From: a virus
Lineage: Duplodnaviria; Heunggongvirae; Uroviricota; Caudoviricetes
IMG/VR virus record: IMGVR_UViG_2563366942_000012
Strand: one strand, 5' to 3'
DNA: 46,106 nt
The notes beneath the pieces were generated by a model. It ran no database searches, was not told the DNA's origin, and saw nothing but the letters and a program-made list of their open reading frames with translations. Below, piece after piece: positions 1,422 to 20,884 of the stretch (positions are counted from its first letter, which is position 1; the number at the start of each line of letters is the position of its first letter). The position numbers and the translations under genes are program-made.

Positions 1422-3893
1422 TTAAAAATCAGCCTGATTCGGGATCAGTTTTTGCCAGATAGCTGAAACGTATTTTGCCTGGTAACGGGCATCATCCAGC
1501 GCATTGTGGCGCTCACCTTCGAATGGGATAGCAGTTCTGGCATCGAAGTCTACGGCTTTCCCCAGCTCAACGATTGTGCGTACATCGCGATCGTTGCAGT
1601 AGCGCCACGGGCAGGGGATACCCTGTCGTTCGTATGAACGGCGCAAAATCGTGTTGTCGAAGTTGGCCCCATTACCCCAGACCTGAACAAAAAACTCACC
1701 GGAGTTTTCGTCGATAAATTCCCGCAATTGCAGTAGTGCATCATCTAACGGGATTTCATCGGTCATAATGGCAGACTGCGCTTCACGTGATTGCTTCAGC
1801 CACCATTTAATGACGTCACGATCAATGACTCCGCCAGCAGTATCCAGATCGATGGTCTTGCTAAATTCTGGTCCCATATCTCCGGTTTGCGGATCGAAAA
1901 ATATTGCGCCTATTGAGATAATCGGGGCATCGGGATTTTTTCCCATGGTTTCAAGGTCGATCATCAGATGAATCCCCGCTCTGCTGGTGGATGTGAGATT
2001 ATGATGACTGTTCGCCTTAATTAAGGGATCTGACGCCTCGCCAGTTTCACTATCGCTGGCATGATGCTGATTGCCGCCAGTGTTCTCCTTGTGCTGATGT
2101 GCAGTACCTTCCATTTCCTCCGGATCATTTTCCTGAACTTCAGGCTGATTCTCTTCATCGAATATTTCCTGGTATGTTGCGTCGCCCATCACCGCGCCAC
2201 AATCAGGGCAGTTGCCGCCGCCGGTCTGACCGCAGGCGGTGCAGACTTTTTCCGGTTCCTGTTGCGCCACTGGTTCAGGCTGTTTCGTTTCTGGCTCGTT
2301 TTGTAACGCATTTGGGCTGTTTTGTTCCGCTTTCTGGTCGTTCTGTTCCGTTTCTTGCTGGTTCTGGTTCACAGAATCGCGGGTTTCAATCCCCTTCACC
2401 CATTTCGGATCATTCGGGTCGCTAATCCCTGCAACAAATTCACCACGTGATGCGGCGAGCAACTGATTGGCGTCAGGCTGGCTGATATTGGCTGCCTGCA
2501 TAATTTTCTTTACTTCGTCAGCGGTAACTTTTACCGGTTCTGGTTGTTCAGAATTTTGTGCGGTATTTGCATTTTGCGGTAAGCCTGTGTATGTGCCATT
2601 TTTTCGGGCAAAATATTCTTCTTTTGTGATTTCAGTAGCCCCGGCAGCCAGCGCCTTATCCAGACCAGAAAGTTTGTTTGCGCGACCGTATTTTTCGCAA
2701 TCCTTGTCGGTGAAGAAGAAGTAGAACGGCCCCTCACGCTCTACAGATGGTTCGACTTCCACTTTGCATTCGGTTTTTTCGTTGTCCGGAATTGCCGTTT
2801 CCACTGCATCAGTTTCTGGTACTGGCGACGAGAGAGTGTCAGTTGCGCTCTGATTTGTTCCTTCATCTTCAAACACGCCCTTTGTAGTCAGGTATTCAGT
2901 AATGTATTTGTTCAGTGCCACAGGGTCTTTGTGAATGTCGATCGGACGTTCACGGACAAGGCCAAAAATAGTCTGGCGGTCGTAGCGAAGGGCATCAGGC
3001 TGTTTGCGCATTGATGCCGAGATACTCTTCCAGTCTTCGCGGTCGTTGTCGATAACTTCATTTTTTGCCCAGCGATGGATGCTGCCGTCAATGTTTCCGG
3101 CATCCACATCACCAGGCCAGAGAGCGTAGGCCAGTTCGTCATCCAGTGTTTTCCATGTCTGCTTATATTCGCGACGAATGACTGCAGTGACAGGGGGGAT
3201 TTTTTCTGCTGAGTTTTCAGTGTGCTGTCGGTGGACTCTGGCGCGGGCGAGATCAACAACAGACGTGTATTTTCCGGTTTCCTTGCGTTCACCTTCGCGA
3301 CGTTTTTTCCAGATGCGCATCTCTGCCTGAATTTCGGGCCATTTGGCACCAGGCTTACATTTATGCTTAACCCACCCGATGGCATGCAGCTTAAGCTCCG
3401 GATACATGGCGTTAACTTCTGGCATTTTCATCAACGCTTCAACGATATGTCCGTCGAATGTTGCCATGTCTTCCTGCAACAATTCCTGCGCGCTAATCAC
3501 CATATCAACGGTGATGTTTTCACATGTGTCGAACTTAACCATGACAGCGTTCTGTACTTCAGGGGCCAGCTTGTCAAAAGCGACGTTCATCGGATCTGAT
3601 TCAGTCTCAACCGGGACAAAGGAAGTAGCCCCCTCATCCCAGCGGTTTTCCTGCATATATTCAGCATCCCATGAATCGAGGGCAGGGCGGGGTATACCGG
3701 GTTTATCCTCGCAAACAAGAAATTTATAAGCGCAGTCCTGAGCAGCCGGATAATGCTCCAGGAATTGCCAGTGAAATTTTGCGCGGGCGCGACGTTCATC
3801 ACCGGCTTCAATGGCAGTGGCTACAGCGACTGCACCTTCTTCCTTTATTGCCTGTTCGTCCGGAATGGCGGCGCAAATAAAGACTTTACTCAT
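1422..3893 (-). CDS. Large putative exonuclease with C-terminal DEDDh (DnaQ-like) 3'-5' exonuclease domain; this class is often annotated as exodeoxyribonuclease VIII
   Basis: 823 aa; C-terminus has exonuclease motifs (HLMIDLETMG ... NALDDARYQAKY); a CxxC...CxxC zinc-ribbon in the middle; acidic low-complexity linker; located in the early-left operon. Confidence 0.7.
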   Translation of the reverse strand: MSKVFICAAIPDEQAIKEEGAVAVATAIEAGDERRARAKFHWQFLEHYPAAQDCAYKFLVCEDKPGIPRPALDSWDAEYMQENRWDEGATSFVPVETESDPMNVAFDKLAPEVQNAVMVKFDTCENITVDMVISAQELLQEDMATFDGHIVEALMKMPEVNAMYPELKLHAIGWVKHKCKPGAKWPEIQAEMRIWKKRREGERKETGKYTSVVDLARARVHRQHTENSAEKIPPVTAVIRREYKQTWKTLDDELAYALWPGDVDAGNIDGSIHRWAKNEVIDNDREDWKSISASMRKQPDALRYDRQTIFGLVRERPIDIHKDPVALNKYITEYLTTKGVFEDEGTNQSATDTLSSPVPETDAVETAIPDNEKTECKVEVEPSVEREGPFYFFFTDKDCEKYGRANKLSGLDKALAAGATEITKEEYFARKNGTYTGLPQNANTAQNSEQPEPVKVTADEVKKIMQAANISQPDANQLLAASRGEFVAGISDPNDPKWVKGIETRDSVNQNQQETEQNDQKAEQNSPNALQNEPETKQPEPVAQQEPEKVCTACGQTGGGNCPDCGAVMGDATYQEIFDEENQPEVQENDPEEMEGTAHQHKENTGGNQHHASDSETGEASDPLIKANSHHNLTSTSRAGIHLMIDLETMGKNPDAPIISIGAIFFDPQTGDMGPEFSKTIDLDTAGGVIDRDVIKWWLKQSREAQSAIMTDEIPLDDALLQLREFIDENSGEFFVQVWGNGANFDNTILRRSYERQGIPCPWRYCNDRDVRTIVELGKAVDFDARTAIPFEGERHNALDDARYQAKYVSAIWQKLIPNQADF

Positions 3894-4362: not shown

Positions 4363-4536
4363 TATCGCGTCCTCAACAATGAATTTTGTGATGCGGTGCC
4401 TGGTGCCTCCAGGTGACGTTAACCAGTTAACAATTAACGCCGGATACAGAGAATCCACCCATAACACTGTTTTTGGTTTTAACTGTTCCGCGTGCGCTTA
4501 GCCGCATTCACTGCATCACAAAATTCACTTTAAAAA

Positions 4537-4589
4537 GGGTGGCAGAGCAGTCACGGAGTAGAACTGATGCCACCAAAGACTACACATGG
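4537..4589 (-). ncRNA. dicF: DicF small RNA
   Basis: Minus-strand sequence ...GGUGGCAUCAGUUCUACUCCGUGACUGCUCUGCCACCC followed by a U-run closely matches remembered DicF, including the 3' hairpin; lies just upstream of dicB as in the Qin dicB operon. Ends approximate. Confidence 0.7.
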
Positions 4590-10845: not shown

Positions 10846-11082
10846 TTTTATGGATCACCTTTCTGATTGATTTCATATTGGCGAGGTGACGTGAGTTAAG
10901 TAGAATGGCTGCGGGTGCTTGAGGCTATCTGTCTCAGGCATGAACACTGAAAGGCAGATAGAGAAAAGCCCCAGTTAACATTTCGCGTCCTGCAAGACGC
11001 TTAACATTAATCTGAGGCCCAATCTATGTCTCACAAATGTAGGTTAGCCTCTTACGTGCCGAAAGGCAAGGGGAAGCAGGCT

Positions 11083-11238
11083 ATGAAGCAGCAAAAGGCG
11101 ATGTTAATCGCCCTGATCGTCATCTGTTTAACCGTCATAGTGACGGCACTGGTAACGAGGAAAGACCTCTGCGAGGTACGACTCCGAACCGGCCAGACGG
11201 AGGTCGCTGTCTTCACAGCTTACGAACCTGAGGAGTAA
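11083..11238 (+). CDS. hok: Hok/Gef-family type I toxin (HokD/RelF-like)
   Basis: 51 aa MKQQKAMLIALIVICLTVIVTALVTRKDLCEVRLRTGQTEVAVFTAYEPEE matches the Hok family; in-frame upstream extension resembles a mok-like leader ORF. Confidence 0.8.
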   Translation: MKQQKAMLIALIVICLTVIVTALVTRKDLCEVRLRTGQTEVAVFTAYEPEE

Positions 11239-13101: not shown

Positions 13102-13787
13102 ATAACCAGTATTTACAGTTTGTTCGTGAGCAACTCATGATTGCCACCGCCGATTTGAGTGGATCAACAAAAGGGCAGCTTGAGGCCTGGCAGGAGAATG
13201 CCATGTTTGATACAGGGCGTTACAGGCGTAAAAAAATCCGGTACCGCGATGAAGTGACTGGAAAAATGATAACGCGGGATAATCCACCAATCCCGGGAAA
13301 GCAATCGCTGGCGAAGGGGGTGTCAATTCCTCTCGTCAGTCCGGTTGAGTTTTCGACATCATCGTGGCGGCGGGCTGTTCTGTCTCTTGAAGAACATCAT
13401 AAAGCCTGGTTGTTGTGGTGTTACAGCGGGAGTATTTGTTGGGAATATCAGATCGCGATAACGCAGTGGGTGTGGAATGAATTTAAAACCCGGTACGGCA
13501 CCAGAAAAATTGCAGGGAAAACGCAGGAGCGCGTGAAGAAGTTGATCTGGCTGGCGGCACAGGATGTCAGAGGATGGATTACCGGGTGTGAGGTCTACCA
13601 GAGACAGGAGCTTGCCAGACTGTGTGGAGTTAAGCCTGATAACTGGAGCCATAATTATGCGAACTACTGGCGTGAGATGTGCGATATTTTTAAGAGTCTC
13701 GATAGAGAATCTGTGATTTGCACCGTGAAAATAAGAGCGCAACAAAAAGCGACTTTTTCACGACGAGATATTGCAAAAGTCAATTAA
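13098..13787 (+). CDS. Putative late-gene antiterminator Q
   Basis: 229 aa ORF directly after rusA and followed by a promoter-like element plus terminator; position and size typical of lambdoid Q. Family assignment from memory is tentative. Confidence 0.5.
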   Translation: MNNQYLQFVREQLMIATADLSGSTKGQLEAWQENAMFDTGRYRRKKIRYRDEVTGKMITRDNPPIPGKQSLAKGVSIPLVSPVEFSTSSWRRAVLSLEEHHKAWLLWCYSGSICWEYQIAITQWVWNEFKTRYGTRKIAGKTQERVKKLIWLAAQDVRGWITGCEVYQRQELARLCGVKPDNWSHNYANYWREMCDIFKSLDRESVICTVKIRAQQKATFSRRDIAKVN

Positions 13788-13789
13788 AT

Positions 13790-13885
13790 AGCGTACGTTT
13801 CGTATAAATCTGATATTTTGCCGATTTTGTACGCGATGGCAAAGTAAGAAAAAAAACTGCCGTCAGGCGGTTTTTTTTTATGCCC
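13790..13885 (+). promoter_or_regulatory. Candidate late promoter and terminator (PR'/tR'-like)
   Basis: TCAATT-17-TATAAA promoter-like hexamers directly after the Q-like gene, then A-run / imperfect hairpin / T9 bidirectional terminator-like structure around 13850..13880. Confidence 0.35.
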
Positions 13886-14001
13886 AAAATCGCGTCAGTA
13901 CAGTAAACACGCTGGTGGTTGCGAATACGGGTCTTTCAGCTTGCTGGCTTTTTCGACAAGAGTTATTGGTATGTCACGTTAACCGGAAAAAGGAAAAAGA
14001 C

Positions 14002-14199
14002 ATGCTAAAACAGCAGGATATGACAGAAACCGCCAGAGTGGTGTTTAATGAATTAAGCGTTACCGAACCGGCGACAGTCGGGGAGATAGCGCAGAATACT
14101 TACCTTTCACGCGAACGCTGCCAGTTAATACTGACTCAGCTGGTTATGGCGGGTCTGGCAGACTATCAGTTCGGTTGTTACAGACGCCTTCCGCAGTGA
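14002..14199 (+). CDS. Small winged-helix-like protein upstream of the DNA methyltransferase
   Basis: 65 aa from ATG with AAGGAAAAAG Shine-Dalgarno; followed by its own hairpin terminator. Confidence 0.45.
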   Translation: MLKQQDMTETARVVFNELSVTEPATVGEIAQNTYLSRERCQLILTQLVMAGLADYQFGCYRRLPQ

Positions 14200-14212
14200 A
14201 GGCTTTTTTATT
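14182..14212 (+). terminator. Rho-independent terminator
   Basis: GCCTTC-CGCAGT-GAAGGC perfect hairpin followed by TTTTTT. Confidence 0.6.
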
Positions 14213-14349
14213 TGTGGTAAATGGGCGGCTGGTGGGTGTTAGGGGCACTTACCAGCCATCTGCTCATGCGTTGGGTTCACAAGCAAACCTCAGGCCCACT
14301 GCTTTGCGCAAAAGCAGAATGAGCCTATCAGAGACAGGCTTAATGATCC

Positions 14350-15399
14350 ATGCTTAATACTGTAAAAATATCCAGTTGTGAGTTAATCAACGCCGACTGC
14401 CTGGAATTTATCCGGTCGTTACCCGAAAATTCTGTTGACCTGATAGTCACGGACCCGCCGTACTTTAAAGTGAAGCCTGAGGGCTGGGATAACCAGTGGA
14501 AGGGCGACGATGATTACCTGAAGTGGCTGGACCAGTGTCTGGCGCAGTTCTGGCGGGTGCTGAAACCTGTCGGAAGTCTTTACCTGTTCTGTGGTCATCG
14601 CCTGGCATCTGATATCGAAATCATGATGCGTGAACGCTTCAGTGTGCTGAACCATATTATCTGGGCGAAGCCGTCCGGACGCTGGAACGGATGCAACAAG
14701 GAAAGCCTGCGGGCGTATTTCCCCGCCACAGAGCGCATTCTGTTCGCGGAACATTATCAGGGGCCGTATCGTCCGAAAGATGCCGGGTATGCGGCGAAGG
14801 GCAGTGCACTGAAACAGCATGTGATGGCCCCGCTGATTTCTTACTTTCGTGATGCGCGCGCTGCCTTGGGGATAACGGCAAAACAGATTGCAGATGCCAC
14901 AGGAAAGAAAAACATGGTGTCGCACTGGTTCAGTGCCAGTCAGTGGCAGCTACCGAACGAAAGCGATTATCTGAAATTACAGTCGCTGTTTGCCCGGGTG
15001 GCAGAAGAGAAACATCAGCGCGGTGAACTGGAAAAGCCCCACCACCAGCTGGTGGATACGTATACGTCACTGAACCGGCAGTATGTGGAGCTGCAGAGTG
15101 AATATAAGCATCTGCGGCGGTATTTTGGTGTGACGGCGCAGGTGCCGTACACGGATGTGTGGACACATAAACCGGTGCAGTTCTATCCCGGGAAACATCC
15201 GTGCGAAAAACCGGCAGAAATGCTGCAGCAGATAATCAGCGCAAGCAGTCGTCCGGGTGACCTGGTTGCAGATTTTTTTATGGGCTCAGGTTCAACGGTA
15301 AAAGTGGCACTGGCGCTCGGGCGTCGTGCGATTGGCGTTGAACTGGAGACCGGACGTTTTGAGCAGACAGTCAGGGAAGTTCAGGATTTAATCGTTTGA
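14350..15399 (+). CDS. Orphan DNA methyltransferase (N6-adenine/N4-cytosine class, DPPY motif)
   Basis: 349 aa; catalytic motif IV DPPY near the N-terminus and AdoMet motif FFMGSGST near the C-terminus; no adjacent restriction endonuclease candidate. Confidence 0.8.
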   Translation: MLNTVKISSCELINADCLEFIRSLPENSVDLIVTDPPYFKVKPEGWDNQWKGDDDYLKWLDQCLAQFWRVLKPVGSLYLFCGHRLASDIEIMMRERFSVLNHIIWAKPSGRWNGCNKESLRAYFPATERILFAEHYQGPYRPKDAGYAAKGSALKQHVMAPLISYFRDARAALGITAKQIADATGKKNMVSHWFSASQWQLPNESDYLKLQSLFARVAEEKHQRGELEKPHHQLVDTYTSLNRQYVELQSEYKHLRRYFGVTAQVPYTDVWTHKPVQFYPGKHPCEKPAEMLQQIISASSRPGDLVADFFMGSGSTVKVALALGRRAIGVELETGRFEQTVREVQDLIV

Positions 15400-15447
15400 A
15401 ACGGATGAGATTGCAGAATTAATTACGCACCATTATTATTCTGCTCC

Positions 15448-15523
15448 CGGCCCTTTAGCTCAGTGGTGAGAGCGAGCGACTCATAATCGCCAGGTCGCTG
15501 GTTCAAATCCAGCAAGGGCCACC
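15448..15523 (+). tRNA. tRNA with CAU anticodon, ileX-like (tRNA-Ile2, lysidine) rather than tRNA-Met
   Basis: 76 nt cloverleaf: acceptor GGCCCTT/AAGGGCC, anticodon loop CUCAUAA, T-loop TTCAAAT, 3' CCA; close to my recollection of E. coli ileX. Confidence 0.8.
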
Positions 15524-15530
15524 ATCACAT

Positions 15531-15607
15531 ACCGCCATTAGCTCATCAGGAAAGAGCGCCAGCTTTCGAAGCTGGTTGCGCGGAGTTCGGGTCCCCGAAG
15601 GCGGTCC
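15531..15607 (+). tRNA. tRNA-Arg-like (UCG anticodon), with non-canonical features
   Basis: 77 nt cloverleaf with anticodon loop UUUCGAA and 3' CCA, but one mismatch each in acceptor and T stems and an unusual T-loop TTCGGGT; middle tRNA of the Stx-phage-style ile-arg-arg trio. Confidence 0.55.
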
Positions 15608-15620
15608 ATTATCTGTATCC

Positions 15621-15697
15621 TGCGTTGTTAGCTCAGCCGGACAGAGCAATTGCCTTCTAAGCAATCGGTCACTGGTTCGAATCCAGTACAACGCGCC
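15621..15697 (+). tRNA. tRNA-Arg (UCU anticodon)
   Basis: 77 nt; acceptor GCGTTGT/ACAACGC, anticodon loop CUUCUAA, T-loop TTCGAAT, 3' CCA. Confidence 0.85.
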
Positions 15698-15710
15698 ACA
15701 CTTATTTTCC

Positions 15711-15740
15711 CTGGCTCGCTTTTGCGGGCTTTTTTTAAAT
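15711..15740 (+). terminator. Rho-independent terminator after the tRNA cluster
   Basis: CTCGC-TTTT-GCGGG hairpin (one G-U pair) followed by CTTTTTTT. Confidence 0.5.
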
Positions 15741-15742
15741 GT

Positions 15743-15957
15743 CTCACAATTCAGGCGGTTGACTGTTGTCTGGTTTGCGGGGAGTTTGTTAAAAGAAACT
15801 GGCATGGTGAATCCCCCTGTGCGGAGGGGCAATCAGCGAGTAGGTATATGGGATAATCGCGGATTCAGGTGCTGGTACTGAATTCACCGGGAGGCACCCG
15901 GCACCATGCAATGGCACATAGCGCCACTCTCCAGCCCCTCTCCGGAGGGGCTTTTCT
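15743..15957 (+). repeat. Structured repeat unit, copy 1, ending in a strong intrinsic terminator
   Basis: Shares CTCACAATTCAG...GTTGAC...GGTGAATCCCCCTG(T/A)GCGGAGGGGC...CACCGGGAGGCACCCGGCACCATG...AGCCCCTCTCCGGAGGGGCTTT with copy 2; three GC-rich hairpins, the last being a perfect 8 bp stem plus T-run. Confidence 0.7.
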
Positions 15958-16146
15958 GTGCCGGATACATCACAGTTTCTGGAACCTTAGGTACTACAGT
16001 ATCAGTCAGGGTGCTATATTTTCAGATGTGATGAAAGCCTGTCAGCAGGCAGGGCGTATCGGAAATGACCCAGTAGAGAAAACGTTGACTCAGATACCGG
16101 TGCTGAGTTACCGGGAAACCGGCATCACATGACCGCTATCCTTCCA

Positions 16147-16176
16147 GGCCCATCCGCTCCGGTGGGCCTTTTTACT
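16147..16176 (+). terminator. Rho-independent terminator between the two repeat copies
   Basis: AGGCCCA-TCCGCTCCGG-TGGGCCT hairpin followed by TTTTT. Confidence 0.6.
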
Positions 16177-16210
16177 GCAGAAAACAGGTTCCCCGTTAAA
16201 TGCTATGTTG

Positions 16211-16443
16211 CTCACAATTCAGTAAGTTGACAGTTGCCTGTCAGACTGGGCATTTGTTAAAAAAATTTCGCATGGTGAATCCCCCTGAGCGGAGGGGCGA
16301 CTGGTGACGGTATAATCTCTGATTATCAAAACGAGAATGACGCGGGTTTAGTGGCACCGGGCTGAACTCACCGGGAGGCACCCGGCACCATGTGCATGAT
16401 GATACAGATACGCGGCTTTAGCCCCTCTCCGGAGGGGCTTTCT
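16211..16443 (+). repeat. Structured repeat unit, copy 2, ending in the same terminator hairpin
   Basis: Imperfect direct repeat of 15743..15957 with the same hairpins; contains TTGACA and a perfect TATAAT hexamer (not at consensus spacing to each other). Confidence 0.7.
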
Positions 16444-16672
16444 TATGGACAAAAAAAGCCCGCGCTGGGAGACGCGGGCGGCAAGGAATAAACAATAAAA
16501 CGTGAAGTAATATTTCAGCTGGCGAATAATACCCCATAGTAATCACTCTGCGCAACTGCGCGGTCTTTTTCGAATTGCGGGCTGTAGTCTCCCTTCTGCC
16601 ATTGTCCTGTAACTTCCGGACTTCAGCCTGCTCCTTATCTGACTCACAACATTATCCCGCCCGGGAGGATTC

Positions 16673-18526
16673 ATGGCATTTAAACACTATGACGTGGTCA
16701 GGGCGGCATCGCCGTCAGACCTTGCGAAACGACTGACACAAAAACTGAAGGAGGGCTGGCAGCCGTTTGGTAGTCCGGTGGCCATAACCCCTTATACCCT
16801 GATGCAGGCGATTGCAGCAGAAGGTGATGTGGTCGTCAGTGGTGCAACTGAGCCGGAGTGGTACTACGTCATCGTACTGGCCGGGCAATCCAATGCCATG
16901 GCTTACGGTGAAGGGCTTCCGCTTCCGGATTCATACGATGCGCCCCATCCGCGCATTAAGCAACTGGCCCGTCGTAACACAGTGACTCCCGGTGGTGAAG
17001 TATGCGTATTTAACGACATCATTCCTGCTGACCATTGTCTGCATGATGTTCAGGATATGAGTACGATTAACCATCCCCGGGCTGACCTGAGCAAAGGGCA
17101 GTACGGCTGTGTCGGACAGGGCTTACATATTGCCAAAAAACTGCTTCCGTATATCCCTAATAATGCGGGGATCCTGCTGGTACCATGCTGTCGTGGTGGT
17201 TCGGCATTCACCCAGGGCACGGAGGGGACATTCAGCGAGTCCACGGGAGCCAGTCAGGATTCGGCTCGCTGGGGAGTGGGTAAGCCGTTATATCAGGATC
17301 TGCTTTTCCGCACGAAGGCAGCATTGCAGAAAAACCCGAAAAACGTTTTGCTGGCGATATGCTGGATGCAGGGGGAATTCGATATGACGAATGCCAGTTA
17401 CGCCCAGCAGCCAGCAGCATTTCTTGCAATGGTACAGCAGTTCCGTGCTGACCTTGCCGGGCTGGCGGCGCAGTGTCACGGTGGAAGTCCGGCATCAGTC
17501 CCCTGGATTTGTGGCGACACGACATACGCGTGGAAACAAGAACACGGTACGCAATATGAAGTGGTATATGGTGCATATAAAGGTAAAGAATCCCAGCAGA
17601 TTTATTTTGTTCCCTTTATGACCGATGGTAGCGGAGTTAATACACCGACAAACAACCCGTCAGAAGATCCTGATATTGCCGGGTCTGGTTATTACGGTTC
17701 GGCATCCCGAACGAACAAAAACTGGGTATCATCAAATCGCCCGACGCATTTCAGCTCATGGGCGCGTCGTGGCATTATTCCCGATCGTATGGCAACTGCT
17801 ATTCTGAACGTAGCCGGTCGCACCTTAGCCTTCATTAGTGGTAAGGCACCGGAAATCAAACCCTCGCCCGGCGGCGACACGCCATCGGGGCCGTCTGAAG
17901 ATGCATCCATACGCACAATCTCCCTGTTGCCGACAGCCGGAGACGCTGCTGCGCAGGGCTGGAGCATTAAGAATGGCGGAATTCAGTTGTCAGATGGTGT
18001 ATTTAAGATCACCAAGCAGAGCAATAAAGCCTGGTCCCTGACGCGCCCGGTGGATGACGCAGTCTCCCTGCTGACACGGGGTGGCAGACTGAGCTGTAAG
18101 TTTCGACTGTCAGGCGCACTGACCAACAACCAGTTCGGTCTGGGAATTTATCTGTATACCGATGTAGCGTTACCTGACGTCGTGGCGATGACCGGGACTG
18201 GTAACCCGTTCCTGATGTCGTTCTTCACCCAGACCACAGACGGCAAACTGAATCTGATGCATCACAAGAAAGCAGGAAACACAAAGTTGGGCGAGTTCGG
18301 GAATTACAGTAACGACTGGCAGACGCTGGAGCTGGTGTTCACCGCCGGCAGTGCCACGGTTACTCCGAAACTGAATGGAGTGGCTGGCCCGGCATTCCAG
18401 GTCATAAAAGACAGTCTGACACTGGGGCTGAATGCGCTGACGCTGACGGATATTACCAAAAATGCAGCGTATGGCGTTGAGATAGAAAGTCTGGTGCTGG
18501 AGATAAATGCACCGGCATCATCATAA
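16673..18526 (+). CDS. nanS-p: NanS-p-type sialate O-acetylesterase (SGNH/SASA domain)
   Basis: 617 aa; N-terminal MAFKHYDVVRA segment, esterase motif VIVLAGQSNAMAYGE; lies between the tRNA region and the holin as in Stx phages; GGGAGGA Shine-Dalgarno. Confidence 0.8.
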   Translation: MAFKHYDVVRAASPSDLAKRLTQKLKEGWQPFGSPVAITPYTLMQAIAAEGDVVVSGATEPEWYYVIVLAGQSNAMAYGEGLPLPDSYDAPHPRIKQLARRNTVTPGGEVCVFNDIIPADHCLHDVQDMSTINHPRADLSKGQYGCVGQGLHIAKKLLPYIPNNAGILLVPCCRGGSAFTQGTEGTFSESTGASQDSARWGVGKPLYQDLLFRTKAALQKNPKNVLLAICWMQGEFDMTNASYAQQPAAFLAMVQQFRADLAGLAAQCHGGSPASVPWICGDTTYAWKQEHGTQYEVVYGAYKGKESQQIYFVPFMTDGSGVNTPTNNPSEDPDIAGSGYYGSASRTNKNWVSSNRPTHFSSWARRGIIPDRMATAILNVAGRTLAFISGKAPEIKPSPGGDTPSGPSEDASIRTISLLPTAGDAAAQGWSIKNGGIQLSDGVFKITKQSNKAWSLTRPVDDAVSLLTRGGRLSCKFRLSGALTNNQFGLGIYLYTDVALPDVVAMTGTGNPFLMSFFTQTTDGKLNLMHHKKAGNTKLGEFGNYSNDWQTLELVFTAGSATVTPKLNGVAGPAFQVIKDSLTLGLNALTLTDITKNAAYGVEIESLVLEINAPASS

Positions 18527-20416: not shown

Positions 20417-20884
20417 ATGAACCGCGTACTGTGCGTGGTCATCATTGCCCTGCTGGTGGCCTGTGGTGCGCTTAGTCTGGGGCTGAATCATTACCGTGAT
20501 AACGCCATTACCTACAAAGCCCAGCGCGACAAAAATGTCAGAGAACTGAAGCTGGCGAACGCGGCAATTACTGACATGCAGATGCGTCAGCGTGATGTTG
20601 CTGCGCTCGATGCAAAATACACGAAGGAGTTAGCTGATGCGAAAGCTGAAAATGAAACTCTTCGCGCTGACGTTGCCGCTGGTCGTAAGCGCCTGCGTAT
20701 CAACGCCACCTGTCCAGGTCCCGTGCGTGAAGCCACCGGCACCGCCCGCGTGGATAATGCAACCGGCCCCCAACTGGCAGACACCGTTACACGGGATTAT
20801 TTCACCCTCAGAGAGCGGCTGATGACGATGCAGAAGCAACTGGAAGGGGCGCAGGAATATATCCGTACTCAGTGCCTGAAATAA
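20417..20884 (+). CDS. Rz: Spanin, inner-membrane subunit Rz
   Basis: 155 aa; N-terminal transmembrane segment, coiled-coil periplasmic domain; Rz1 embedded in +1 frame. Confidence 0.85.
20637..20822 (+). CDS. Rz1: Spanin, outer-membrane lipoprotein subunit Rz1
   Basis: 61 aa embedded in Rz in a different frame; signal peptide with lipobox LVVSAC and proline-rich mature region. Confidence 0.8.

Follow-up and report, generated by a model that had tools for sequence, protein, structure and literature searches.

A probable array of STnc100-like small-RNA genes between a tRNA trio and nanS-p in a lambdoid prophage without stx

The 46,106-nt stretch of DNA analysed here (IMG/VR record IMGVR_UViG_2563366942_000012, hereafter the window) is 100% identical to a prophage found in Escherichia coli CE10 (O7:K1), avian pathogenic E. 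coli (APEC) O18 and many other strains. Its late region is arranged in the style of Shiga toxin (Stx) phages, as a model's earlier reading of the bare sequence (the original prediction) had proposed: genes for Q, a DNA methylase, three tRNAs, NanS-p, a P21-type holin and a lysozyme were all confirmed, and no stx gene is annotated or was found in the window. We focus on the 1-kb spacer between the tRNA trio and nanS-p, in which the original prediction had noticed two direct repeats of about 215–230 nt sharing an identical terminator. Along the late-operon strand, this spacer holds the terminator of the tRNA cluster, three head-to-tail units termed a, b and c, and an opposing small RNA (sRNA), followed by nanS-p, the conserved open reading frame (ORF) 3' of the sRNA site (Table 1). 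Both b and the opposing sRNA were absent from the original prediction.

RNA units in the tRNA–nanS-p spacer

As the original prediction had suggested, the two repeats were aligned with each other and with the corresponding regions of Stx phages. In a global alignment, a and c share 155 of 214 positions (72%), and the unit boundaries first drawn agree with the RNA boundaries within a few bases. The similarity is strongest in three blocks, namely 15743–15830 and 16211–16298 (80% over 88 nt), 15878–15908 and 16362–16392 (97% over 31 nt), and the 22-nt terminator AGCCCCTCTCCGGAGGGGCTTT, which is identical at 15933–15954 and 16420–16441; the central insert is non-homologous. Scanning the whole window with the Rfam model STnc100 (RF02076, gathering score 47 bits), a covariance-model search of the kind originally proposed, yielded two matches above threshold, both over the full model length (1–206): a with 136.3 bits (15773–15963) and c with 165.4 bits (16241–16450). 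Minimum-free-energy (MFE) folds of both show the family architecture (z=-2.5 for a and -2.6 for c). Thus, of the options first offered, that of short structured phage RNAs describes a and c, which are members of a known family already curated beside stx and nanS-p, and not a new one.

In sequence, a is identical to an RNA that has been detected in E. coli O157:H7 Sakai. In prophage Sp4 of this strain, the same tRNA trio is followed by a unit (locus L127, 2716–2927) that is 100% identical to a over 212 nt, and the Northern probe published for EcOnc05 corresponds exactly to the reverse complement of window positions 15832–15866. This RNA was crosslinked to Hfq, being the fifth most recovered new RNA in Hfq cross-linking and analysis of cDNA (CRAC), and gave a band of ~222 nt (Tree et al. 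2014, PMC4104026). We therefore place the 5' end of a near 15743, since a 222-nt band fits the 215-nt unit and the a/c homology begins there. The sequence of c points in turn to EcOnc27/sRNA103. It shares 84.5% identity over 181 nt with the unit 3' of stx2B in Sakai prophage Sp5 (locus L003, 6394–6569), which begins ~45 nt after stx2B and scores 207.7 bits with the Rfam STnc100 model; AsxR is also found there. The homology extends beyond c, such that window 16211–16672 corresponds to the usual stx2B-to-nanS-p spacer of the Stx2 phage Sp5. EcOnc27 gives bands of ~235 and 247 nt, the latter form being destabilised without Hfq, and the predicted start of c agrees with this size.

The promoters originally proposed for the repeats did not hold up. 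The TTGACT and TTGACA hexamers lie ~17 nt inside the transcribed unit; GATAAT (15852–15857) and, in c, TATAAT (16313–16318) fall in the non-homologous insert and are out of register, and GATAAT is covered by the EcOnc05 probe. Being ~80–86 nt apart in each copy, the hexamers form no promoter pair. We also considered TTGAC(T/A) as a -35 element together with TGtTAAAAA/G (15787–15795 and 16255–16263) as promoters of short isoforms starting at GCAUGG. This arrangement is disfavoured: the band sizes of EcOnc05 and EcOnc27 and the abrupt onset of a/c homology at CTCACAATTC favour starts near 15746 and 16216. A shorter isoform of a or c is nevertheless conceivable, with EcOnc06 (~177 nt) and PasD (172 nt) as precedents. 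A pairing between the leader (GGGGAGU) and linker (ACUCUCC) of a, seen in its MFE fold, was dropped, as leaders and linkers swap partners and the pairing is not conserved.

Between a and c lies a third, diverged paralog. At a relaxed threshold, the Rfam STnc100 model aligned over its full length to 16002–16175 with 30.1 bits, below the gathering score (E=4e-5 in a search of the spacer only). As an independent test, we built a covariance model, R1, from 16 diverse cores taken from IMG/VR, phage and E. coli loci, with b excluded and the four-helix core imposed. Searched against both strands of the whole window, R1 found b at 16026–16131 with 33.3 bits (E=3e-6), compared with 110 bits for a and 123.6 bits for c. 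The identity of b to a and c is just 40%–47%; it retains all helices via altered sequence, each of them covered by the covariance-model alignment, and folding alone recovers the closing helix, the three hairpins and the terminator (MFE z=-2.7). A near-consensus extended -10 element, TGcTATATT, precedes the closing helix by 6 nt. On these sequence grounds, b is a new member of the STnc100-like fold class.

Among 5426 complete E. coli genomes, 673 (~12%, about 1 in 8) carry the b unit, and in none of them is it annotated; carriers include extraintestinal pathogenic E. coli (ExPEC) such as CE10 and APEC O18, and the E. coli type strain. The exact locus of the window is found in CE10, APEC O18 and DSM 30083. 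Two main alleles exist, with 100% and 85.5% identity to the window copy, and a search of phages and IMG/VR for further ones yielded only these two. Hairpin 1 of one allele is distinguished from that of the other by a double change (C-G to U-A), two wobble changes and changes in the loop; both alleles have intact, though remodelled, terminators. The -10 region is unchanged between them, in contrast to the diverged 40 nt ahead of it. Covariation within b is thin, as it comes from two main alleles only. In IMG/VR, b almost always stands in the middle of an S-b-S array, with STnc100-type units on both sides (73 complete and 33 truncated arrays); it was also seen in a few fragments of S-b or b-S type but never alone, and five copies are without a terminator. 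The same array, with an a-type unit in third place, occurs in a separate, unrelated prophage lineage in which IraM replaces nanS-p.

On the opposite strand, the region downstream of c encodes an sRNA homologous to EcOnc08/21/42. Window 16451–16672 shares 92% identity with the Sp4 spacer that carries EcOnc08/21/42 (L127, 2937–3158) and 94% with phage PhiR12_5, and both the published EcOnc08/21/42 probe and the 3'-end sequence from enteropathogenic E. coli (EPEC) match the minus-strand sRNA. The EPEC RNA, E2348C_1409.E2348C_1408.IGR, is a 182-nt sRNA from RNA interaction by ligation and sequencing (RIL-seq), which its authors equated with EcOnc08/21/42. The minus-strand sRNA carries a seed-like CCUUGCC, complementary to the target motif GGCA(A/G)GG of the EPEC sRNA, and its 5' part is antisense to the nanS-p leader. 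Its terminator is the strongest in the region. Identity with AsxR or AgvB (RF02703, RF02702) was rejected, as neither model gave a match at E<=10 in 16440–16680, whereas the same search finds AsxR with 88 bits in Sp5; a weak OmrA-B match on the minus strand (25 bits) was treated as a chance similarity between terminators.

Terminator-like sites are enriched in this part of the window, with 13 in 13500–17500 compared with 4.0 +/- 2.3 in shuffled sequences. They include 15713–15730, 15933–15952, 16146–16169, 16420–16439 and 16548–16563, among which are the three extra terminators originally noted at 15711, 16147 and about 16541. The last of these, on the plus strand, corresponds to an internal hairpin of the minus-strand sRNA on its own strand. 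At least six plus-strand terminators stand between the PR' region and nanS-p, at 13859, 14186, 15713, 15933, 16146 and 16420.

Table 1. Features of the late region and their positions in the window
Feature	Position	Strand	Basis or remarks
Q gene	ends 13787	+	PF06323
Candidate PR' and tR'	13790–13880	+	hairpin 13859–13871 followed by nine T, directly after Q; hexamer position putative
N6/N4 DNA methylase gene	between Q and tRNA trio		confirmed
tRNA trio	15449–15698	+	ARAGORN; Rfam tRNA matches; RefSeq annotation of the identical CE10 locus
Members of the trio			CAU-anticodon tRNA (ileZ-type; RefSeq tRNA-Ile), tRNA-Arg(UCG), tRNA-Arg(UCU)
Intrinsic terminator ending the tRNA cluster	stem 15713–15730 + T7, to 15737	+	
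TTAAAT, weak -10-like, before a	15735–15740		overlaps the T-run of the tRNA-cluster terminator
sRNA gene a	15743–15957	+	STnc100 family; equals EcOnc05 of Sakai Sp4
Parts of a	core 15802–15910; linker 15911–15932; terminator 15933–15952	+	5' leader of ~55 nt; linker variable
Linker of a			candidate seed ...CACUCUCC; unique linker sequence AAUGGCACAUAGCGCCACUCUCC
TGcTATATT, near-consensus extended -10 of b	16012–16020	+	predicted start ~16026; putative function
sRNA gene b	16026–16175	+	unannotated STnc100-like paralog between a and c
Closing helix of b			AUGUGAUG/CAUCACAU (family form GCAUGGUG/CACCAUGC)
Hairpins of b			CCUGUC-AGCA-GGCAGG; GACUCAGA.../...GCUGAGUU; CCGG-GAAA-CCGG
Linker and terminator of b	terminator 16146–16169	+	linker GACCGCUAUCCUUCC; terminator originally noted at 16147
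TGcTATGTT, extended -10-like, before c	16201–16209	+	from sequence; predicted start ~16215–16217
sRNA gene c	16211–16446	+	STnc100 family, EcOnc27/sRNA103-type
Parts of c	core 16270–16394; linker 16395–16419; terminator 16420–16439	+	5' leader precedes the core; linker UGCAUGAUGAUACAGAUACGCGG
Minus-strand sRNA	16451–16644	-	homologous to EcOnc08/21/42 and EPEC E2348C_1409.E2348C_1408.IGR; 5' end predicted
Terminator of the minus-strand sRNA	16479–16458 + T7	-	
Sigma-70-like promoter of the minus-strand sRNA	16679–16651	-	predicted
nanS-p-type sialate O-acetylesterase gene	16673–18526	+	Pfam DUF1737 + SASA + DUF6645; RefSeq 'SASA family carbohydrate esterase'

Fold and relatives of the family

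Comparison of the family members revealed a common core, in which an 8-bp closing helix surrounds three hairpins and a hypervariable insert, followed by a variable single-stranded linker and a Rho-independent terminator. In the 16-core alignment, 99.3% of cells are paired and both partners have changed in 13 of the 26 pairs, values that none of 500 shuffles reached in either respect; sliding the partners along the alignment lowers the pairing to 37%–47%. The fold is thus supported by covariation across the family. Next to covarying stems, the GGAGGCA loop and the GUGAAUC junction hardly vary, and the core is far more conserved than the linker. Furthermore, core, central insert and 3' tail reassort freely across the family, one case being an insert of c type combined with a tail of a type. 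CU-rich linkers similar to anti-Shine-Dalgarno sequences are found in a (...CACUCUCC) and b (...AUCCUUCC), whereas c has a different linker.

Of the 358 phage records that carry the STnc100 unit, nearly all are Stx1- or Stx2-converting phages. Scanning genome contigs with the 15-base pattern GCATGGTGAATCCNCC gave, among the matches listed, only chance ones in unrelated phyla. In EDL933, 11 STnc100 copies are transcribed, and a Northern blot confirmed one of them (PMC5331693). Another study places STnc100 75 nt downstream of stx2 (PMC12370729), and STnc100 variants overlap features that predict haemolytic uraemic syndrome (HUS), with a statistical link to HUS outcome (PMC12711010). The largest array that we saw is on the minus strand of another IMG/VR record, L250 (IMGVR_UViG_2861053794_000003), where 2325–3350 hold four rather diverged STnc100-type units head to tail (119.5, 100.3, 105.4 and 72.9 bits).

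The window itself holds a fourth STnc100-like core, at 4390–4516 on the minus strand, between the DicF sRNA (4537–4588) and the start of dicB (~4361). It scores 44.2 bits with R1 (E=8e-9) and 32.7 bits with the Rfam STnc100 model, below threshold, and its MFE fold has z=-4.0. The stems are compensatory variants (CCUGG/CCAGG compared with CCGGG/CCCGG in the family), and the loop GGAGGCA is kept. Lacking a terminator of its own, this core would belong to the dicB leader. This stretch (136 nt) is present in 4641 of 5426 complete E. coli genomes; among the matches listed, it is unannotated save for one match overlapping dicB.

The closest counterparts of a and c are the STnc100 RNAs, among them EcOnc05, EcOnc27/sRNA103, EcOnc04 and EcOnc06 of O157, which resemble them in score, structure, size and terminator. 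They also occupy the same place in the lambdoid late region, ahead of nanS-p and the lysis genes and, if stx is present, on its 3' side. Two features set the present locus apart: three family members stand in tandem, whereas the 11 annotated copies of EDL933 are each in different prophages, and the middle copy is too diverged for an Rfam call, unlike the annotated STnc100 copies.

STnc100 is related to the EPEC sRNAs PasD1 and PasD2 (bioRxiv 10.64898/2026.05.13.724894; Zhu, Shabalina & Storz 2026). PasD depends on Hfq, is 172 nt long and has targets identified by RIL-seq; its seed lies immediately before the terminator (PMC8550237; bioRxiv 10.64898/2026.05.13.724894). The PasD RNAs of EPEC E2348/69 (Pearl Mizrahi 2021) share with our units the closing helix, the first hairpin (GCAUGGUGAAUCC...) and the site upstream of a SASA esterase gene, and PasD starts at the closing helix with its promoter directly ahead, as b does. 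However, PasD is without the third hairpin and scores 41 bits on the STnc100 model. Unit b differs from it in linker and terminator and gave no BLAST match to the PasD2 locus, to which a is similar over only a 62-nt stretch (76%), and the PasD seed CCUUGUGAG is absent from a, b and c. The pasD copies lie at least 74 kb apart and thus form no tandem arrays (bioRxiv 10.64898/2026.05.13.724894).

The overall arrangement recalls the dyads of Hfq-binding sRNAs that lie between PR' and the lysis genes in at least eight Sakai prophages (PMC4104026; PMC7873438). In EcOnc27/AsxR and EcOnc06/AgvB (Tree et al. 2014), a plus-strand STnc100-type sRNA likewise faces a minus-strand sRNA with back-to-back terminators, and such dyads sit between a moron and the conserved downstream ORF, as here. 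The present locus departs from the published dyads in that the plus-strand side is triplicated and the minus-strand partner is of the longer EcOnc08/21/42 type, not a 51–60-nt anti-sRNA like AsxR or AgvB. Compared with EcOnc08/21/42 of Sakai Sp4/Sp15, this partner has the same terminator and CCUUGCC; its predicted length is ~190 nt, compared with 182 nt in EPEC and a Northern size of ~271 nt in Sakai, with the 5' end here placed by prediction only. A further parallel is lambda 6S RNA/StxS, likewise a short terminated late-operon transcript whose terminator is overridden by Q. Lambda 6S and StxS, however, begin at PR' right after Q and carry a Q-utilisation site, whereas the repeats here lie ~2 kb further on, have another fold and are found also 3' of stx.

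A model for the array and competing explanations

Taken together, the 1-kb spacer probably consists of four independent sRNA genes, an expanded 'sRNA dyad' at the lambdoid moron site, with a, b and c head to tail on the late-operon strand in an STnc100 (RF02076)/EcOnc/PasD fold and the fourth, of EcOnc08/21/42 type, convergent to them. In a lysogen, each unit would be transcribed from its own sigma-70 promoter, with an extended -10 element in the case of b and c, and would end at its own terminator. The RNAs would bind Hfq and pair in trans via the variable linker just 5' of the terminator. The linker is proposed as the seed because the PasD seed has been mapped there, and since the linkers differ, the three paralogs would carry three specificities on one scaffold. 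Upon induction, Q-modified RNA polymerase coming from PR' would have to pass all the terminators to reach nanS-p and the lysis genes. Recombination in the near-identical cores and terminators would expand, collapse and reshuffle the array. This step is probable because a and c share near-identical blocks of 31 nt and 22 nt, and because Sp4 resembles the locus without the stretch from the a terminator to the c terminator. Sp4 carries a alone, and in Stx2 phages stx2AB stands where a and b stand here. Both Sp4 and Sp5 have the same tRNA trio.

Several points weigh against this model of four trans-acting sRNA genes. No targets of STnc100-type RNAs have been validated, and for EcOnc27/sRNA103 only over-expression effects on fimZ and espA are reported. 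The 5' ends are predicted, homologues spanning 172–247 nt, and expression of b and of this strain's other units is likewise a prediction from sequence. The candidate promoter of a is weak, so that a could instead come from the tRNA transcript, by read-through or by processing. Compared with classical Hfq-dependent sRNAs, a (UUUUCU) and c (UUUCUU) have short U-tails, and the extreme conservation of the core suggests a function beyond simple seed pairing. As for b, it scores below the Rfam gathering threshold and is known from two alleles, and the case for selection on it rests on few substitutions.

Several other explanations of the spacer were weighed against the four-gene model. That b is a decaying pseudogene from an old duplication, with only a and c functional, is a real though minor possibility. 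It scores only 30–33 bits, has lost the GAAUCCCCC junction/hairpin sequence and the GAGGCA loop, and comes in just two alleles, five of the IMG/VR copies being without a terminator. However, the four helices and the terminator are intact in both alleles, whose differences cluster at compensatory or wobble positions and in loops; the near-consensus extended -10 element is kept exactly and at the right distance from the closing helix; the MFE z-score of b is as good as those of a and c; and b is retained in 673 genomes. It is unlikely that the STnc100 core is instead a structured RNA domain that is portable and has its own function, such as binding a host or phage protein or the ribosome via the GGAGGCA loop and the GUGAAUC junction, or acting as a stabiliser or processing module. 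If this were true, phages would graft seed-plus-terminator 3' tails onto the core or set it before genes such as dicB, and the S-b-S array would be a recombination-driven generator of sRNA diversity in the Shiga-toxin slot. That the cores act chiefly in cis and not as trans-acting sRNAs, by affecting the processing or stability of the late transcript or the translation of nanS-p, appears distinctly unlikely, for discrete terminated RNAs are seen in uninduced O157 and EPEC lysogens and the units also occur where nanS-p does not follow. In its favour are the related core without its own terminator in the dicB leader, the much stronger conservation of core than linker, and a match to nanS-p itself: the invariant core segment UGAAUCCCCCUGNGCGG of a and c (15808–15824 and 16276–16292) could pair at 82% of 17 positions with the ribosome-binding site and start codon of nanS-p, CCGCCCGGGAGGAUUCA (16657–16673). 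This match may hint at cis or trans control of NanS-p translation; it may also be due to chance, since a C-rich strand suits any strong Shine-Dalgarno sequence. The segment is moreover buried in helices P1/P2.

The remaining alternatives find little room. That the units are inert, functionless flanks or scars of a lost or exchanged stx cassette, an option first raised in the original prediction, is very unlikely as a whole. Its historical part stands, in that c and the sequence downstream are the normal 3' flank of stx2AB, being homologous to the Sp5 spacer, and the site is a known moron exchange point. Its claim of inertness does not, given that this spacer holds sRNA genes with transcripts of their own: compensatory substitutions maintain the fold across diverged copies, identical or near-identical alleles are expressed and Hfq-bound in O157 and EPEC, and the units also stand beside unrelated neighbours such as IraM in place of nanS-p. 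A small protein encoded by an ORF through b, of 55 aa (phage annotation), 87 aa (from GTG 15869) or 33 aa (from ATG 16031), is hardly credible. Its frame is open in both b alleles, and phages vB_EcoS-733R4 and PhiR5_2 are annotated with a hypothetical protein there; however, ATA stands here in place of the ATG annotated in the phage allele, and no Pfam match was found. In the 33-codon frame, the alleles differ by 5 nonsynonymous and 2 synonymous changes, and four of the 5 preserve hairpin 1, such that pairing is kept while codons are altered. The ORFs that begin at the conserved AUG in the closing helix vary among paralogs in length (8, 11, 25 and 33 codons) and frame and have no common product, which bears out the earlier remark that no ORF explains the repeats. 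Finally, the reading of a and c as duplicated PR'-tR' leader modules with Q-utilisation sites, also offered at first, is almost certainly wrong, even though each unit, located in the late operon beyond Q, ends in a strong terminator. The expected type of terminator stands at 13859–13871, ~1.9 kb upstream of the repeats, which begin 1.96 and 2.42 kb past the Q stop codon; the intervening DNA holds a small ORF, another terminator, the gene for the methylase and the tRNA trio. Given the ~222-nt EcOnc05, the TTGAC hexamers lie inside the transcribed unit; the same units are found 3' of stx1 or stx2 in hundreds of phages, far from PR'; and in Stx phages another sRNA, StxS, is the RNA made from PR'-tR' (PMC7873438). 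What survives of this reading is that the units end in terminators which Q-modified polymerase would have to pass.

Relative to published work, the finding is largely a rediscovery and its novelty is modest, consisting in the unannotated paralog b, the recurrent three-gene array in the toxin slot and the related fold in the dicB leader. A modular family with a conserved core and exchangeable inserts and 3' tails represents a simple route to regulatory-RNA diversification in prophages. Moreover, the natural three-allele array is convenient for separating the role of the core from that of the tail, which is useful because STnc100-type RNAs have no established target or mechanism despite the position of one copy ~75 nt from stx2B and the statistical link of its variants to HUS outcome (PMC12711010).

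Prophage setting

The true PR'/tR' most likely lies directly after Q, as the counterpart of lambda 6S/StxS. The plus-strand RNA from this site (~65 nt; window 13797–13880) would be the equivalent of these transcripts. The post-Q terminator is flanked by an A-run and a T-run and could therefore act both ways, and on the minus strand, 13844–13920 give a weak, sub-threshold match to STnc370 (39.4 compared with 54 bits).

Elsewhere in the prophage, the sok antitoxin RNA is found at 10913–11088 on the plus strand (Rfam, 120.5 bits) beside the annotated hokD toxin gene, and the DicF sRNA mentioned above scores 61.1 bits with its Rfam model. Counting sok, DicF and the four sRNAs of the late region, at least six regulatory RNAs are recognisable in the prophage. 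Downstream of the spacer, an Rz-like lysis gene at 20417–20884 (L001, 11018–11484) carries a frameshift annotation in the CE10 record, whose sequence is identical here, and a transposase gene of the IS3 family lies ~1 kb beyond it. The prophage may thus be lysis-defective yet retain its sRNA cassette.

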